A stretch of DNA of 64,000 nt from an uncultured Veillonellaceae bacterium (GTDB lineage: Bacteria; Bacillota; Negativicutes; UBA1444), in the NCBI GenBank assembly GCA_964601085.1, contig CAZRLN010000002.1, positions 48,207-112,206 on the forward strand, written 5' to 3'. Position 1 is the first letter of the stretch, and each line of letters begins with the position of its first letter. A model generated the notes under the pieces. The model did no database searches. It was not told the origin of the DNA and worked only from the letters and a program-made list of their open reading frames with translations. The position numbers were made by a program, and so were the translations under genes. Of this stretch, positions 3,184 to 26,076 are shown in pieces.

Positions 3184-4800
3184 TTGAGGAAAGGTTACTT
3201 TGAAAAGCCGAGTATGTACTCGGCTTTCCCCTTACTATCGGATATGGAGAGGAGGCAAACTACCATTGTTGAAAAGTTAATCTTTGTATTGGTTGCCGCG
3301 GCAATCGGAACGGCTGCCGGTTATTGGATTCGAAAAAAACTGGCGGAAGCCAAGATCGCTTCGGCGGAAGAGGCCGCCCGGAAAATTCTCGACGATGCTC
3401 AGCACAGCGCGGATGCTCGAAAGAAAGAATCCCTGATTGAAGCCAAAGAGGAGATTCATCGTTTTAGGGCGGAAGCCGAGCGTGAACTCAAGGAACGCCG
3501 CTCCGAAGTTCAGCGGATGGAACGCCGCTTGCAGCAAAAAGAAGAGAACTTGGATCGAAAAATTGAGTCCATGGAGAAAAAGGAAGAGAATATCGGCAAA
3601 CGTGAATTGGAAGTAGACGGCAAACAGGCGGAGATCAACGAACTGTTTCAAAAGCAGGTCGACGAACTGGAACGTTTGGCCGGTTTGACACAAGAAGAAG
3701 CCAAAGCAGTTTTGCTTTCCAATGTTGAGCAAGAAACCCGTCATGAAATGGCAATTCTGATCAAAGATCTGGAGCACCAGGCGAAGGAAGAATCCGAGAA
3801 AAAAGCCCGTGAAATTATTTCGTTGGCGATTCAACGCTGTGCTGCTGATCATGCTGCAGAAACCACTGTTTCTGTAGTGAGTCTGCCCAACGACGAAATG
3901 AAAGGGCGAATTATTGGCCGGGAGGGCAGAAACATTCGGACCCTGGAAGCGCTGACCGGGATTGATCTGATTATTGACGATACCCCGGAAGCGATCCTTA
4001 TCTCCGGTTTTGATCCGGTTCGACGGGAAGTCGCCCGGATTGCCCTGGAAAAACTGATCAGTGATGGCCGCATTCATCCCGCACGGATTGAAGAAACTGT
4101 CGAAAAAGCGCAAAGGGAAGTGGAACAGCGGATCAAGGACGCCGGAGAACAGGCAACCTTTGAAACGGGTATCCATGGTTTGCACCCGGAATTGATCCGA
4201 TTGTTGGGCCGTTTGAAGTATCGTACCAGCTATGGCCAGAACGTATTGAAACATTCGATTGAAGTTTCGCATCTGGCCGGAGTGATGGCGGCGGAACTGG
4301 GCGTGGATGTTACATTGGCCAAACGGGCCGGATTGTTGCATGACATTGGCAAAGCGATCGATCATGAAGTGGAAGGCCCCCATGTGACAATTGGCGGGGA
4401 CCTGGCCAAGAAATATCGGGAATCAGCGGAAGTCATCAATGCGATAGTTGCGCATCATGGCGATGAGGAACCCAAAACAATCCAGGCGGTTCTCGTGGCC
4501 GCTGCAGATGCTGTTTCCGCCGCAAGACCTGGTGCACGGCGTGAAACCTTGGAAAGCTATATCAAGCGTTTGACCAAACTGGAAGAAATCGCCGATTCCT
4601 TTGATGGGGTCGACAAGTCGTATGCGATTCAAGCAGGACGTGAAGTCCGTATTATTGTCAAACCGGAAAAAATCGACGATCTGGCCTCGATTCGCTTAGC
4701 GAAGGACATCGTGAAACAAATCGAATCGGATATGGATTATCCGGGTCAAATCCGCGTAACAGTAATTCGGGAAACTCGTGCCGTTGATTACGCAAAATAA
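3184..4800 (+). CDS. rny: ribonuclease Y (N-terminal TM helix, KH and HD domains)
   Basis: Near-colinear with B. subtilis Rny (KH motif [12 protein letters not shown]; HD motif LLHDIGKA; C-terminus [13 protein letters not shown]-like). Track start is TTG 3184; an in-frame ATG at 3244 is the alternative. The only strong SD (GGAGAGGAGG about 3246-3255) lies just downstream of that ATG, so the start is ambiguous. Confidence 0.9.
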
Positions 4801-4840: not shown

Positions 4841-4882
4841 GGAAACGACCTTGTTTAAGGTCGTTTCCGATTTTTGGTTTTT
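4841..4882 (+). terminator. rho-independent terminator after rny
   Basis: GGAAACGACC-ttgtttaa-GGTCGTTTCC, a perfect 10-bp stem followed by GATTTTTGGTTTTT. Confidence 0.75.
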
Positions 4883-4900
4883 GAAGTGAGGGACGCAACC

Positions 4901-5437
4901 ATGGTACCTAAAATTAATTCGAATAGTTCAGATACGCGCTCTTCCGATGGCGTTAGTCTGTTAATTTCTTTATTGATGCGGTTTCCTCAAATTGGAACCC
5001 TTCAATTTGATTCCAAGCATCGCTTGCTGACGATGAACTTTATGTTGGCGCAAACTGTGTCGGCAACCGATCTGAATTCTGTAAAAATGGCCATAGACTC
5101 TCATCTGAAGGCGTATCATTTCATCACGGGAAAAGCTCCCTCCTGCTTAAAGATTACTACTAAACAGCCTTATGAAAAATTTTGCATGTTGTCGATTGTT
5201 CGAGACATTGCGACTTTGTCAAAAGGTGAAATTACTTTATTAAGCACGCTTTTGTCGGAAAACTTTCGGGAATGTCTGATTCTTGACGATTCGGAATACA
5301 TTGCCGATTTTGTTGATGACTTCGAGATTCCGGAAGAGATGATCGACAGTATGTTTGAAGTCGTTCGGGCGCAACGGGCGGCAAATAGTTTGACGGCGTT
5401 ACGTGAGAACGGACGCGTTCTTGTTTTTAGCAAGTAA
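4901..5437 (+). CDS. hypothetical protein (178 aa), no recognisable domain; occupies the ymdB-like position between rny and spoVS
   Basis: Track ORF 4874..5437. Chosen start ATG 4901 (M10) has SD GAGGGA 7 nt upstream. Visibly AT-richer than its neighbours. Confidence 0.5.
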   Translation: MVPKINSNSSDTRSSDGVSLLISLLMRFPQIGTLQFDSKHRLLTMNFMLAQTVSATDLNSVKMAIDSHLKAYHFITGKAPSCLKITTKQPYEKFCMLSIVRDIATLSKGEITLLSTLLSENFRECLILDDSEYIADFVDDFEIPEEMIDSMFEVVRAQRAANSLTALRENGRVLVFSK

Positions 5438-5514
5438 GTGGCAGGAGTTTTGAGAATTCTGACGAAACGTTAATCAGTACGGTGAAATATGGAGGAGGAG
5501 GGTGCAACGAAAGC

Positions 5515-5775
5515 ATGGGCGTTTTGAAGGTTTCAGCCAAATCTAATCCTAATTCGGTCGCAGGCGCATTGGCAGGCGTGATTCGCGAACAGGGATCCGC
5601 CGAAATTCAGGCAATTGGTGCTGGTGCGCTAAACCAGGCCGCCAAAGCGGTGGCTATTGCCCGTGGTTTTGTTGCCCCGCAGGGGATTGATTTGATTTGT
5701 ATTCCCGCTTTCGCGGATATTCTGATTGATGGAGAAGAAAGAACCGCTATTAAATTGATTGTCGAGCCGCGATAA
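5515..5775 (+). CDS. spoVS: stage V sporulation protein S
   Basis: 86 aa from M12 of track ORF 5482..5775; near-identical to B. subtilis SpoVS (LKVSAKS.PNSVAGALAGV...IKLIVEPR). Multiple GGAGG SDs upstream. Confidence 0.9.
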   Translation: MGVLKVSAKSNPNSVAGALAGVIREQGSAEIQAIGAGALNQAAKAVAIARGFVAPQGIDLICIPAFADILIDGEERTAIKLIVEPR

Positions 5776-5788
5776 ATCATTCGCAAGA

Positions 5789-5820
5789 GGAACCTGTTTG
5801 AGGACAGGTTCCGCTTTTAT
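5789..5820 (+). terminator. rho-independent terminator after spoVS
   Basis: GGAACCTGT-ttgagg-ACAGGTTCC followed by GCTTTTATC. Confidence 0.75.
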
Positions 5821-5894
5821 CGGAAAATTCCTGCGGCGGATTCGATTCCATTGAAACCGGTAATCGGATATTGTAGCTGCCGGGAGGGTATGGG

Positions 5895-6731
5895 TTGGAC
5901 GTAGTCGCATTCATCGGGCCGACAGGCACGGGAAAAAGCCATCGGGCTTCGAAAGTGGCTCATGATTGTGGCGCCGATGTAATTATTGACGATGGGCTGC
6001 TAATCAAAGATAATAAAATTATTGCGGGTTCGTCGGCCAAATATGAGACGAATAAGATTCGCTCGGTAAAAAAGGCCATCTTTGCGGATGACGATCATGC
6101 CGATCAAGTGCGAAACGCACTGGCGAAAATGCAGATTTCGCGTGTATTGGTGCTGGGAACTTCCCGAAATATGGTGGAAAAAATTATTCGTGTGCTGAAG
6201 TTGCCACCCGTCTCGCAAGTTATTAATATTCATGATGTTTCCACCCCGGATGCGATCCGTAAGGCCCGGGAGACAAGACGGACGCAAAACAAGCATATTG
6301 TACCCGTCCCGAAGATTGAACTTCAGCCGCATCTGCCGAATTTCATGATTGATCCGATGCGCTTGTTCGCCAAATCGACCCGGCAAGCCAGACATCATTA
6401 TGGCGAAGTATCCGTGGTCCGGCCCAATCGATTTTCGGTATTCGGCAAACTGATTATTACGGAACGCGCTGTGGCCATGATTGTACGGGAAGAGTTATTA
6501 AAAGATAAATCCTGGGTCGCGCTAACGCGTATTTCCGTAAAAAATATGGAAAAACCGGAACGTGGGTTGGTTTTACGTCTGGATGTGACGGTTCGATATG
6601 GCGTTAATATCCCGAACGCAGTTCGTGCCGCACAAGATCGGATCAAAATGCAGGTTGAATATATGACCTGGATGACGGTTACGGATGTTGACATTTTTGT
6701 TCGTAGCATTGTTGCGGAGACAAAAGGATAG
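5895..6731 (+). CDS. two-domain protein: N-terminal P-loop NTPase (Walker A GPTGTGKS, Walker-B-like VIIDDG) fused to a C-terminal Asp23/Gls24 (alkaline shock protein, DUF322-like) domain
   Basis: 278 aa; TTG start with SD GGGAGGG 6 nt upstream. The C-terminal about 110 aa (ITERAVAMIVREELL...LRLDVTVRYGVNIPNAVRAAQDRIKMQVEYMTW...) match the Asp23 family pattern. Confidence 0.6.
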   Translation: MDVVAFIGPTGTGKSHRASKVAHDCGADVIIDDGLLIKDNKIIAGSSAKYETNKIRSVKKAIFADDDHADQVRNALAKMQISRVLVLGTSRNMVEKIIRVLKLPPVSQVINIHDVSTPDAIRKARETRRTQNKHIVPVPKIELQPHLPNFMIDPMRLFAKSTRQARHHYGEVSVVRPNRFSVFGKLIITERAVAMIVREELLKDKSWVALTRISVKNMEKPERGLVLRLDVTVRYGVNIPNAVRAAQDRIKMQVEYMTWMTVTDVDIFVRSIVAETKG

Positions 6732-6751
6732 AAAGGGGGCCGTGTAACGAT

Positions 6752-7105
6752 TTGGCTACAAATGACGATGGGTTGGTTCTTTTTTCGGGTTATGCAAAAT
6801 TGCCGGTTGGAATTACTGCCAGTGAAATGTATAAAGTGATCGGGATGATTCTAGTCATCCGGGTGGAAACGGGTGAGATTGTGGAAGCTGATTGTACACT
6901 GGCGACAAAAGTTGCCCGGGAATATGTTTCCCAGGTTTTACTGGGACAGTCGTTGAAAAACGGACCAGACGCCGTCTTGCGAATTGTGGACAAACGTTAT
7001 CAGGGAAGCGCTAAAAAAGCCATTATGACTTCACTGCGGATTATTTATGATAAGTATCGGAGTTTTATGGAGGAGCAAATGGCATCCGAAACGGAGTTTC
7101 ATTGA
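6752..7105 (+). CDS. small conserved hypothetical protein (117 aa), likely co-transcribed with the P-loop/Asp23 gene
   Basis: Track ORF; 20-nt gap after the upstream gene. No domain recognised with confidence. Confidence 0.55.
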   Translation: MATNDDGLVLFSGYAKLPVGITASEMYKVIGMILVIRVETGEIVEADCTLATKVAREYVSQVLLGQSLKNGPDAVLRIVDKRYQGSAKKAIMTSLRIIYDKYRSFMEEQMASETEFH

Positions 7106-7137
7106 GTAGTTGATTGTTTGTTTGTTCAGGAGAAGAG

Positions 7138-7417
7138 ATGTCGTTTTATATCGATAGGGGTCCTGATAGGTATTTTGATTGGTTTGCTGAGGGTTGGCGG
7201 TGTTTTATTCGTTCCGATTATGGTGACGTAGCTGGCGGTTCCCAACATTCAGCGCCGATGAATGGTATTGTTGCTGGCGGCAGGATCAATCTTAGGCAGC
7301 CTGGTCAGCTTAAATTTGGTCCAGCGGATTGATGGAACGATACTAATGCGTATTTTGGGCATCCTTTTGATTTACTCCAGCTATAAAATGATTTTTCCTC
7401 ACGCCCAGAAATCTTAG
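7138..7417 (+). pseudogene. decayed TSUP/TauE-SafE family membrane transporter gene (frameshifted and internally deleted)
   Basis: Frame A gives MSFY...; frame B gives ISIGVLIGILIGLLRVGGVLFVPIMVT*, a typical TSUP N-terminal helix with a GG motif. Frame C ends AGSILGSLVSLNLVQRIDGTILMRILGILLIYSSYKMIF*, a typical TSUP C-terminus. The three pieces lie in three frames within about 280 nt, against about 750 nt for an intact gene. Confidence 0.6.
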
Positions 7418-7434
7418 AGGAAGAAATCATTCCG

Positions 7435-7463
7435 CGCTCTGCCGGTTTTGTGCCGGGAGAGCG
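7435..7463 (+). terminator. hairpin (11-bp stem, 1 mismatch) with T-rich tail; probable relic terminator of the decayed TSUP gene, or an attenuator before miaB
   Basis: CGCTCTGCCGG-ttttgtg-CCGGGAGAGCG followed by ACTTTGCATTTATG. Confidence 0.35.
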
Positions 7464-7500
7464 ACTTTGCATTTATGAAGTTTTATGGAGAGGAGTCCCT

Positions 7501-8844
7501 ATGCAGATTCAGTCCTACCATATTGAGAGTTTCGGCTGCCAGATGAACCTGAGCGATTCCGAACGCTTGGCCGCTCAACTGGAGAGTTTGGGTTGCGTTT
7601 CGGTGGATCAGGCGGAACAGGCCGATGTGATCATCCTGAACACCTGTTGCGTGCGCGAAAGCGCCGAAAACCGGATTTTTGGCCGTATTGGTGCTTTAAA
7701 GCGATGGAAACAGAATAATCCGGAATTAATCCTCGTGATTGCCGGATGCTTGGCGCAAAAGGATCAGGATGCGATTTTCCGTCGGGCGCCGCATGTGGAT
7801 ATTGTATTGGGAACTCAAAATATTGATCGCCTCGCGGAAATCCTCGGGGAAAAACAACGACGGCGGCGGATTGTCGAATCCCAGCCGCATAATGAGGACG
7901 GATTGGGCGAAGTGGCGGGTTCCCGTCGCCATGTCGGCATCAGCGCCTGGATTCCTGTCATGTACGGTTGTGATAATTTTTGCAGCTATTGCATTGTGCC
8001 ATATGTGCGAGGTCGGGAGCGCAGCAGGTCTCCCGAGGCGATCCTGCAGGAAATTCGAGACTTCGTAGCGTCTGGTGGACGTGAAGTGACGTTGTTGGGG
8101 CAGAACGTCAATTCCTATGGCAAAAATTTGCCGGAGCCGTGGAGTTTCCCCCAACTGTTATCGGCGGTGGACCAAATTCCCGGCTTGCGTCGAATCCGCT
8201 TCATGACCTCGCATCCGAAAGATTTCGGTGAAGAGTTGATCCAAGTGATGGCCACGGGCCGGAATATCTGCGCTCATCTTCATTTGCCGGTACAGTCGGG
8301 TTGTGACGAGATTTTGCGCCGAATGAATCGCCACTATACGACCGATGAATATCGGCGTCATGTCGCCGCCTTGCGCGCCGTTCTTCCCAAAGTCAGTCTC
8401 ACAACGGACCTCATTGTCGGTTTTCCGGGCGAGACGGACGCCATGTTTGACGAAACTTTGCAGTTTATTGGCGAAATGAAATTTGATGCCGCTTTTACTT
8501 TCCTATATTCCAAACGATCAGGAACTCCGGCGGCAACCCTGGAACAGCAAGTTCCACCGGAAGTAAAGCAGGCTCGTTTGCAGCGGCTGATGGATTTGCA
8601 AAATGAGATCAGTCTGCGTCGCAACGAACAGTGGTTGGATCAAACCGTCGAGGTGCTTGCCGATGGGCCGAGCAAGACGGATGCCGCCACCTATTCGGGG
8701 CGAACCGTTCAGAATAAGATTGTTCTTTGGCCTACGGAACCGGATGATGCTCCTGGTGTATTCCGGCGGATACGGATTACTTCCGCCCAGACATTTTTGC
8801 TCAAGGGAACCGCAGTTTCGGAAAGGAACGGGATGCAACCTTGA
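7501..8844 (+). CDS. miaB: tRNA-2-methylthio-N6-dimethylallyladenosine synthase MiaB
   Basis: Radical-SAM CxxxCxxC, MTTase N-domain and TRAM domain. Start ATG 7501 (M18 of the track ORF) follows SD GGAGAGGAG. Confidence 0.9.
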   Translation: MQIQSYHIESFGCQMNLSDSERLAAQLESLGCVSVDQAEQADVIILNTCCVRESAENRIFGRIGALKRWKQNNPELILVIAGCLAQKDQDAIFRRAPHVDIVLGTQNIDRLAEILGEKQRRRRIVESQPHNEDGLGEVAGSRRHVGISAWIPVMYGCDNFCSYCIVPYVRGRERSRSPEAILQEIRDFVASGGREVTLLGQNVNSYGKNLPEPWSFPQLLSAVDQIPGLRRIRFMTSHPKDFGEELIQVMATGRNICAHLHLPVQSGCDEILRRMNRHYTTDEYRRHVAALRAVLPKVSLTTDLIVGFPGETDAMFDETLQFIGEMKFDAAFTFLYSKRSGTPAATLEQQVPPEVKQARLQRLMDLQNEISLRRNEQWLDQTVEVLADGPSKTDAATYSGRTVQNKIVLWPTEPDDAPGVFRRIRITSAQTFLLKGTAVSERNGMQP

Positions 8845-25269: not shown

Positions 25270-25950
25270 TCAGGAGGCTGAACTGGTTTCGCTTTTTTCC
25301 AGCCGTCGGAGCAATTCCATCGGATGTTCCAGCAGAACGGATTCCAAAATTTCGACGGGAATGCCTGCGCCTTGCGCGACTTTGGCGGCAAACCCTTCTT
25401 TCATTAGATTATCGGGCGAATGGGCGTCGCTGTTGACCAGAAGTTTCGCTCCGACCGCGAGCCCAACTTTCACGACGTGGCCGTTCGTTAAGGAGTGACC
25501 GGCCCGGGCCGTAACCTCCAGAAAGATATCGTTGACTACGGCAATTTGGGCTTCTTCTGTCGTAAGAAAACCTGGATGAGCCAACACATCGACGAAGGAA
25601 GACATCAAAGCGGCTCGATTGGTTCCTGGTTCAACCGGCTCAACCGGTGTTTCACCATGAACGACGACAATTCGTGCACCGAACGACTTGGCCTGCCGCG
25701 CGCATTCATTGATGGCTGCCGCTGGAACATGGGTCAACTCAACACCAGGCAACGCTTTGATACCCCAGTGCTTTTCCGCCAAGGCGCAATCTTTTGCCAC
25801 TTCCCGGATCGTTGATTCCATATTGGCCAGACCAATGTGGTCGGTTACTGCGATGGCGCGATAACCGGCAACATGGGCGCGTCGAATCAGTTCAATCGGT
25901 GACAGGACTCCATCGCTGAAAAATGAGTGCGTATGAAAATCAAAAGTCAT
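25270..25950 (-). CDS. PHP-domain (polymerase/histidinol-phosphatase) metal-dependent phosphoesterase
   Basis: Start at M5 of the track ORF (MTFDFHTHSFFSDG, the PHP motif); Asp/His-rich metal ligands throughout. Confidence 0.75.
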   Translation of the reverse strand: MTFDFHTHSFFSDGVLSPIELIRRAHVAGYRAIAVTDHIGLANMESTIREVAKDCALAEKHWGIKALPGVELTHVPAAAINECARQAKSFGARIVVVHGETPVEPVEPGTNRAALMSSFVDVLAHPGFLTTEEAQIAVVNDIFLEVTARAGHSLTNGHVVKVGLAVGAKLLVNSDAHSPDNLMKEGFAAKVAQGAGIPVEILESVLLEHPMELLRRLEKSETSSAS

Positions 25951-26076
25951 TCTTCTTCCCAACCTTTCTGGCTATAACTATTCGTTCGCCGCTTCTCCGG
26001 CGCTTTCCTGCTCGTCTCTTACAAAATGCGGAAAAATGCCGGGCTTAAATAGCGAACCGAAAATTGATCGATTCAT

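Follow-up and report, generated by a model that had tools for sequence, protein, structure and literature searches.

A widespread, uncharacterised protein family joins a putatively kinase-like P-loop domain to an Asp23 domain in Negativicutes and Clostridia

Among the Gram-positive proteins whose mechanism is unknown, those of the Asp23/DUF322 family are some of the most abundant. Asp23 of Staphylococcus aureus assembles into filaments in vitro and is distributed in a filament-like manner in vivo (PMC6954212), and in Bacillus subtilis RfaA/YqhY has recently been shown to be a proteolytic adaptor, which brings the ATP-dependent enzyme AccC to ClpEP, with a second member, YloU, encoded beside the kinase FakA (bioRxiv 10.1101/2024.02.19.580884; PMC5437119). 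Here we examine a gene whose 278-amino acid (aa) product carries an Asp23 domain behind an N-terminal P-loop domain. It lies in a 64,000-nucleotide (nt) stretch of DNA from an uncultured Veillonellaceae bacterium (assembly GCA_964601085.1, contig CAZRLN010000002.1, positions 48,207 to 112,206 of the forward strand; hereafter the window), and had been put forward, in an original prediction made without database searches, as a fusion of undescribed architecture. We found that the gene belongs to a large, conserved and uncharacterised family, rather than a rare one, that is present in both Negativicutes and Clostridia. Such a fusion, of an Asp23 domain with a P-loop domain that looks catalytic, gives a natural way into the role of the Asp23 module, and a set of tightly linked partners (PHP, DUF3870, YebC and DUF6062) adds further ways in.

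The two open reading frames (ORFs) of the locus were found exactly where they had been placed: the fusion gene at 5895–6731 (+ strand, TTG start, 278 aa) and a smaller gene at 6752–7105 (+ strand, TTG start, 117 aa), with an intergenic gap of 20 nt (6732–6751). Inspection of the sequence identified Shine-Dalgarno-like elements for both, GGGAGGG at 5882–5888 (+), 6 nt before the TTG of the fusion gene, and AAAGGGGG at 6732–6739 (+) for the second gene. The 278-aa protein begins with MDVVAFIGPTGTGKS and ends with ...VRSIVAETKG. Given thousands of homologues and 14 invariant residues across 92 diverse sequences, both genes are real, far beyond chance.

The two-domain architecture was upheld by an AlphaFold2 (AF2) model built from 92 diverse homologues (mean predicted local distance difference test score, pLDDT, of 87) together with an above-threshold Asp23 match. 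Residues 1–131 (5895–6287, +) form a compact N-terminal domain with a pLDDT above 89 in every 10-residue block, and its elements follow the order strand 2–7, P-loop, helix 14–24, strand 29–32, a hairpin (35–38/41–45), two helices, strand 83–88, a helix, strand 106–111 and helix 118–131, which can be summarised as b1, P-loop, a1, b2, hairpin and then three helix-strand units. The predicted Walker A motif, GPTGTGKS, was confirmed at residues 8–15 (5916–5939, +), where it sits between strand 2–7 and helix 14–24 as expected of a P-loop alpha/beta domain. The N-terminus is confidently modelled as a compact P-loop domain, the kind of fold that had been proposed. The accompanying Walker-B-like strand of the form hhhhDD is also there, as VIIDD at residues 29–33, but it corresponds to b2, directly behind helix 1, which is the arrangement of DxD-type kinases. 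Strand b3 finishes with LGTS, which has no acidic residue; strand b4 ends in a variable HD, ED, DE or EQ.

Conservation was assessed over the 92 homologues, each only 30–43% identical to the window protein. Fourteen residues are invariant (G8, G11, G13, K14, S15, D32, D33, G45, K49, A61, A124, R128, H134 and P137) and a further five are nearly so (T89, S90, G132, P139 and P177). Five of the invariant positions fall in Walker A, and the acidic pair Asp32-Asp33 (5988–5993, +), at the end of strand b2, occupies a position that we take to be equivalent to the DxD motif of shikimate and gluconate kinases. The pattern of invariant residues points to a catalytic domain and not a relic. In one homologue, P0317 (425 aa), an insert of approximately 143 aa lies exactly between K14 and S15 and has the features of an intein (Cys1 ... 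His-Asn, with Ser at +1; Pfam Intein_splicing at 23 bits, sub-threshold).

No Pfam or NCBIfam model reaches its threshold on the N-terminal domain, and no NCBIfam model, those for kinases included, passes on the 278-aa protein as a whole. The leading sub-threshold Pfam matches at the N-terminus are AAA_33 (20.5 bits), IPT (19.5 bits) and AAA (19.5 bits). Of these, AAA_33, a family to which polynucleotide- and gluconate-kinase-like proteins belong, is the sole hidden Markov model (HMM) match to cover the whole domain (residues 3–135, E = 6e-4), and it misses its cut-off of 27 bits and matches only 13 of the 92 members at E <= 0.01. As the Pfam matches are scattered and sub-threshold, the N-terminal domain is best described as a P-loop domain without a model of its own. 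A Foldseek search of the PDB returned no close relative of the model, the nearest solved analogue of the N-terminal domain being gluconate kinase (1ko1/1ko4, probability 0.97–0.99); searched by sequence and by profile, the PDB yields Walker A segments only. In the model, the domain thus appears kinase-like by its fold and by the acidic pair after strand 2, and is not demonstrably part of any named kinase family. A resemblance to the motifs of HprK/P (GxSGxGKSxxA...DD) was also considered and set aside: no Hpr_kinase match was found in Pfam or NCBIfam at E <= 1, among the 92 members, or in the listed Foldseek and PDB-profile matches.

The same evidence bears on whether the domain might be a nucleoside triphosphate-hydrolysing switch, in which ATP binding and hydrolysis drive the assembly and disassembly of Asp23 oligomers or filaments, or control their binding to a partner such as DUF3870, with no phosphotransfer. 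The filaments of S. aureus Asp23 fit such a role, as do the commonest sub-threshold matches among the 92 members, AAA (28) and ABC_tran (24), which outnumber IPT (15) and AAA_33. The N-terminal domain is also small, at approximately 130 aa, with no substrate-binding or lid subdomain seen in its secondary-structure summary, and an acidic residue is usually retained after strand b4 (consensus I-x-I-E-D). However, the acidic position at b4 varies, so that there is no invariant Walker B Asp-Glu; the invariant D32/D33, K49, R128 and H134 fall outside the canonical ATPase motifs; and the best structural analogue is a kinase. We therefore consider a switch unlikely, though it deserves a place among the candidates.

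A conserved linker (residues 132–183; 6288–6443, +) connects the two domains. It contains the invariant H134 and P137 and the nearly invariant G132, P139 and P177, and it is poorly modelled though strongly conserved: the poorly modelled stretch extends over residues 132–187, with a pLDDT below 50 at residues 148–161. The Asp23/DUF322 domain that follows (residues 184–275; 6444–6719, +) passed the Pfam threshold for PF03780 at 37.5 bits against a cut-off of 28 over residues 214–272, as the original prediction had anticipated, and was matched in 76 of the 92 diverse members at E <= 0.01. This alignment takes in only positions 51–107 of the 108-position profile, and an AF2 helix at residues 190–202, preceding the aligned part, could be a diverged form of the first half. 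Residues 190–273 have the topology helix-strand-strand-helix-strand in the model, and Foldseek matches this region to the C-terminal domains of cation-diffusion-facilitator (CDF) transporters, which share it. The best NCBIfam match, to the Asp23-like part of AmaP (residues 184–267), is weak and below its pass mark. The layout of the characterised members (small stand-alone proteins with an AmaP anchor, accBC or fakA as neighbour) is not matched by the 278-aa fusion, whose neighbours are spoVS, DUF3870, PHP, YebC and DUF6062.

This domain raises the question of a role in lipid or envelope homeostasis, which the database name of the family implies, with the P-loop domain acting as a lipid- or fatty-acid-related kinase or regulator in a FakA-like role and the Asp23 domain placing the protein at the membrane. 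Every characterised Asp23 protein has a connection with lipids or the envelope: S. aureus Asp23 is membrane-associated, YqhY/RfaA controls acetyl-CoA carboxylase and YloU is co-operonic with the fatty-acid kinase FakA (PMC5437119; bioRxiv 10.1101/2024.02.19.580884). The weak match of the C-terminal domain to the AmaP anchor model is in keeping with these. Yet none of the clades examined has a lipid, fatty-acid or envelope gene as a conserved neighbour, the fusion gene has no AmaP-like anchor gene beside it, and the database name comes from the Pfam domain alone. The family is, moreover, present both in Negativicutes, which have an outer membrane, and in Clostridia, which do not. We regard this explanation as decidedly unlikely. 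Where members are named by annotation pipelines, they are usually called 'Asp23/Gls24 family envelope stress response protein', a label that is probably misleading because the N-terminal domain has no Pfam or NCBIfam model; some members of the clostridial clade described below carry the Joint Genome Institute label 'YloU/adenylate kinase family enzyme'.

Searches with the full protein gave approximately 5,100 matches at E <= 0.001 among representatives of 90%-identity clusters, part of which will be proteins with Asp23 only. The best 120, down to 47% identity, are almost all full-length (272–303 aa), and the named ones among them are Negativicutes, such as Sporomusa, Acetonema, Pelosinus, Methylomusa and Sporolituus. 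When the N-terminal domain (residues 1–180) was used as the query against 1.84 billion cluster representatives, 733 clusters at 50% identity were recovered at E <= 0.001, 506 of them at E <= 1e-10. Nearly all of the 733 are 265–290 aa in length, and therefore the same fusion; longer homologues carry disordered N- or C-terminal extensions. A second large clade, from Clostridia, has proteins of 340–440 aa and comprises at least 992 clusters at E <= 1e-20. Given these numbers, the fusion is not unusual, and the suggestion that it is an undescribed architecture holds in part: literature searches that paired Asp23 with P-loop, ATPase or Veillonella, or that were directed at DUF6062, turned up no account of it and the N-terminal domain has neither a dedicated curated model nor a name, but the family to which it belongs is large, populated and already labelled.

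Scanning one genome for each species yielded 275 loci, and among the best 80 are Sporomusaceae, Selenomonadaceae, Veillonella, Mitsuokella, Pectinatus, Phascolarctobacterium, Acidaminococcaceae, Peptococcaceae and other Clostridia. The hosts include common commensals of the gut and mouth (Veillonella, Phascolarctobacterium, Selenomonas, Ruminococcaceae and Monoglobus), and the exact window protein occurs in 153 blocks of a public assembly index. Phage records gave no match to the family, a single match was found in a non-mobilisable Monoglobus 'plasmid' record, and neither window protein matched a PADLOC defence model, on which grounds a defence system or mobile element was rejected. Together with the 733 clusters and the unremarkable base composition of the locus, these results argue for a housekeeping character.

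Three of the 92 members have no recognisable C-terminal domain. Alternative architectures were considered for P0348 (a DHQS_C fragment), P0280 (which looks frameshifted) and P0371 (very diverged or altered), and none was established. Three members of the clostridial clade, P0343, P0363 and P0382, have long disordered N-terminal extensions that share one short motif, approximately R-[RE]-E-[EK]-F-F-x-[SA]-[LI]-x-x-[FL]-N-P-L, which could be a docking motif.

The 117-aa protein, for which the original prediction gave no function, was identified as a member of DUF3870 (PF12986; 91 bits against a cut-off of 22, covering profile positions 3–94 of 94). It had been proposed as a partner of the fusion gene, and it is a genuine one: the fusion gene lies directly upstream of DUF3870 in all 70 metagenome loci whose upstream DNA was long enough to show it, from a search that reached only close relatives of the window's DUF3870. 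Seen from the fusion gene, co-occurrence is looser, with DUF3870 directly behind it in only 14 of 75 genome loci. Public gene calls give a DUF3870 protein of 92 aa from an internal ATG (window 6752–6826; 3933–4211 in locus L172); the TTG at 6752 is the better start, since the family-invariant L10–K16 lie upstream of that ATG.

No solved relative of this DUF3870 protein turned up in the PDB by sequence or by profile search, and 3kog is included in that result. The DUF3870 label has also been used for the C-terminal domain of Bacteroides BVU_4064 (PDB 3kog, assigned to DUF3870 in a 2015 paper), which could not be connected to the 94-position Pfam model. The 'DUF3870' protein MtsB of the MANTIS preprint, whose residues are numbered to at least 190 against a 94-position model, probably belongs to a different family and was not used. 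A relationship of DUF3870 to the Asp23 domain, or to the genes found downstream in Clostridia (DUF6062 and the 136-aa and 117-aa proteins), was rejected (hhalign probability below 1%).

A commoner neighbour than DUF3870 is found on the other side of the fusion gene. A gene for a TrpH-type PHP phosphoesterase lies directly upstream on the same strand in 62 of the 79 genome loci that extend far enough, mostly at a spacing of 9–30 nt or with a 10-nt overlap. Its product matches the NCBIfam models for 3',5'-nucleoside bisphosphate phosphatase and RNase RNM at E of approximately 1e-50 and falls below both curated equivalog cut-offs; it belongs to the pAp-phosphatase / RNase AM branch. A P-loop gene beside a PHP gene recalls the pairs CpsD/CpsB and PtkA/PtpZ, in which a P-loop bacterial tyrosine (BY) kinase is encoded next to a PHP phosphatase, and the fusion protein could by the same pairing be a protein kinase with the PHP protein as its phosphatase. 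We consider this highly improbable, since the PHP partner is of the branch named above and not CpsB-type, no BY-kinase model matches the window protein or any of the 92 members, the C-terminus of the window protein has no tyrosine cluster, and the window has no PHP partner.

Comparison of the loci gives an ancestral gene order in Negativicutes of rny, orf187, (ymdB), spoVS, (pepA), PHP, fusion gene, (DUF3870), (TSUP), miaB, mutS; in Veillonella, miaB follows the fusion gene directly. For B. subtilis, the original prediction put the unrelated tdh-kbl genes between spoVS and miaB, a statement on which a literature search turned up nothing. The lineage of the window (with its closest relatives, at loci L001–L003, L092–L101 and L172–L174) has no ymdB, pepA or PHP at this site, where most other Negativicutes have them, and spoVS abuts the fusion gene because these three genes have been lost there. 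The missing segment amounts to approximately 3 kb (window 5776–5894 compared with L004–L008, L104, L114 and others), and its absence reflects a lineage-specific loss or relocation. The sole PHP match elsewhere in the window, at 25270–25962 (−), is histidinol-phosphatase-like, a different type from TrpH, and was discarded as a displaced partner. The window gene is an ordinary member of the family that has lost its usual PHP neighbour.

The adjacency of spoVS (5482–5775, 129 bits) had prompted the suggestion of a function in sporulation, which this comparison does not bear out. The fusion gene does adjoin spoVS in the window, but a terminator-like hairpin stands between the two (5789–5812, +; a stem of 10 bp, 5 of them GC pairs, and a T-rich tail behind it) and bounds the transcription unit of the fusion gene on its upstream side. 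Most genomes have pepA and PHP between the two, and in Clostridia the contexts are unrelated. Furthermore, members occur in Negativicutes with and without spore formation: Veillonella, Selenomonas, Mitsuokella and Phascolarctobacterium, which are non-spore-forming genera, have kept the gene. No link to sporulation was found. The spoVS adjacency is inherited gene order, and a sporulation-specific role is largely refuted, with next to no probability left to it.

In the clostridial clade the surroundings are different again. YebC/TACO1 is directly upstream in 9 of 9 loci examined (explicit in 8, and assumed in L091, where the gene is unannotated and end-cut), and DUF6062 is directly downstream in 6 of the 9 and nearby in L091. 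Four of the nine have serS, NUDIX and Impact/YigZ genes upstream, and four have a Smr-like gene of 117 aa downstream (23 bits, sub-threshold, in L089); a uracil-DNA glycosylase (UDG) gene is also among the neighbours. Across L081–L090 the cluster reads serS, NUDIX, Impact_N/YigZ, YebC, fusion gene, DUF6062, a 136–161-aa protein and the 117-aa Smr-like protein. DUF6062 itself contains two CxxC...CxxH units that look like zinc-binding modules. Other contexts, with X for the fusion gene, are fur-sfsA-X-DnaD-like-DnaI-like in a Peptococcaceae genome, pnp-X in a metagenome-assembled genome from Clostridia and rex-X-DNA glycosylase in Monoglobus.

We favour, tentatively and well short of conviction, a composite reading in which the 278-aa protein is a chromosomal, cytoplasmic housekeeping enzyme of two modules, ATP-dependent and kinase-like, whose Asp23 module serves for oligomerisation or as an adaptor and whose substrate is a nucleotide or a nucleic-acid end. 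The N-terminal module would be a minimal kinase-type P-loop domain that binds ATP, most likely through Lys14 and Ser15 of Walker A, and transfers or hydrolyses the gamma-phosphate by means of the invariant Asp32/Asp33, Lys49, Arg128 and His134 together with Thr89/Ser90. By analogy with the Asp23 filaments, with RfaA, AccC and ClpEP, and with YloU and FakA, we infer that the Asp23 module is non-catalytic and probably serves to build dimers or oligomers of the enzyme, or to link it with a regulator. In the lineage of the window the fusion gene and DUF3870 form a two-gene unit, and in most Negativicutes the PHP gene is directly upstream; the PHP enzyme would supply a complementary phosphoesterase or exonuclease step. 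The fold, the motifs, their conservation and the operon-like linkage are observed, whereas the use of ATP, the kinase chemistry, the class of substrate and the part played by the Asp23 module are proposed. The type of the PHP partner and the neighbourhoods suggest a nucleotide or an RNA or DNA end as the likeliest substrate: the neighbours include rny, ymdB, miaB and mutS; pnp, sfsA and the DnaD-like and DnaI-like genes; YebC, Impact/YigZ and serS; Smr-like and UDG genes; and a DNA glycosylase. The recurring theme of these neighbourhoods is nucleic-acid and translation housekeeping only, and it is suggestive but weak.

Several observations weigh against this composite. No kinase-family HMM scores above threshold on the window protein or on any of the 92 members, the sub-threshold matches are divided between kinase-type (AAA_33, IPT and AAA_17) and ATPase-type (AAA and ABC_tran) models, and the TM-score to gluconate kinase is only approximately 0.4. 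The N-terminal model was judged from its secondary-structure summary, in which strand order is not seen. PHP is absent upstream in 17 of the 79 loci as well as in the window, and the neighbours vary by clade, none of them specifying a substrate. As most loci come from one class, much of the linkage could be inherited order and not functional coupling. Finally, the family is known from sequences and models alone.

A narrower version of the composite holds that the P-loop domain is a polynucleotide or nucleotide kinase, acting on 5'-OH RNA ends or on the ribose hydroxyl of a nucleotide, which licenses or opposes the adjacent PHP enzyme, with Asp23 as a built-in adaptor. We think it quite improbable in this specific form. 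If it were true, the system would be a bacterial counterpart of the RNA-end logic of eukaryotic Grc3-Rat1, and an Asp23 domain would for the first time be tied to a biochemical activity; one could then suppose that serving ATP-using enzymes (AccC, FakA and the P-loop domain described here) as adaptors is what Asp23 modules generally do.

The gap between the DUF3870 gene and miaB is occupied by the decayed remnant of a TauE/TSUP permease gene (7114–7430, +), which does not belong to the system, is split into two short ORFs and was recognised by tblastn at 41% identity over 113 aa to the intact gene of the related locus L002. Intact genes are found in relatives, for example at 7578–7967 in L002, where the gene matches TauE in Pfam. 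The remnant is followed by miaB (7450–8844) and then mutS. Upstream, rny closes with a terminator-like hairpin, as spoVS does, and a search of the intergenic regions for RNA elements returned none at E <= 1. Between rny and spoVS lies an ORF of 187 aa (orf187; 4874–5437, +) with no Pfam or NCBIfam match, which is kept at the same position, with 25–75% identity, in approximately 45 of the Negativicutes loci fetched. It is uncharacterised and syntenic, and sits roughly at the site of ymdB or beside it.

We compared the fusion protein with five known systems. The GTPase Era, a P-loop domain with a C-terminal KH domain, has a similar domain order, and Foldseek aligns it to the whole model at E of 2e-4 to 1e-3. 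Unlike Era, the window protein has neither the NKxD guanine-specificity motif nor the GXXG motif of KH domains, and the root-mean-square deviation (rmsd) of 17–19 Å means that the two domains do not superpose together. Whole-protein matches of the Era-like and PaaK-like (PaaK1) kind, at rmsd values of 17–21 Å, were rejected as the coincidence of two domains.

Gluconate and shikimate kinases and proteins of the polynucleotide-kinase-like AAA_33 type share with the N-terminal domain a Walker A motif at the extreme N-terminus, acidic residues that end b2 approximately 17 residues past the Walker lysine, and a conserved arginine in a late helix. In gluconate- and shikimate-type kinases, the substrate-binding helices are located after b2, whereas the window protein has at this point a beta-hairpin (35–45) and then a conserved AG-x-SAK motif. 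It also remains below every HMM threshold for these kinases, at a TM-score of approximately 0.4, and its domain is shorter, at approximately 130 aa. Modules that combine an RNA-end kinase with an exonuclease or phosphoesterase (yeast Grc3-Rat1/Las1 and bacterial Pnkp) resemble the locus in having a P-loop kinase-like gene beside a PHP gene of the RNase AM/pAp-phosphatase type, in a neighbourhood rich in genes of RNA metabolism. This likeness is an analogy only, with no sequence relationship, and PHP is missing in the window.

The Asp23/DUF322 family itself (S. aureus Asp23, Enterococcus faecalis Gls24, and B. subtilis YloU/RfaB and YqhY/RfaA) is matched by the C-terminal 90 residues, which pass the family threshold and model with the same topology. 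Characterised members are stand-alone proteins of approximately 120–170 aa, whereas the window protein, at 278 aa, has the domain as its tail, aligns with the C-terminal half of the profile only, and lacks AmaP, acc and fakA as neighbours. Like the Asp23 proteins of the YloU-FakA and YqhY-AccC pairs, the module goes together with an enzyme that probably uses ATP, in this case a P-loop domain fused to it. A further parallel is the FakA-YloU pair. The fusion differs from that pair in having a P-loop and not a Dak2 fold, no DegV/FakB partner and no lipid context, but it likewise brings together a kinase-type ATP enzyme and an Asp23 module, and may be regarded as the 'Rosetta stone' version of that arrangement.

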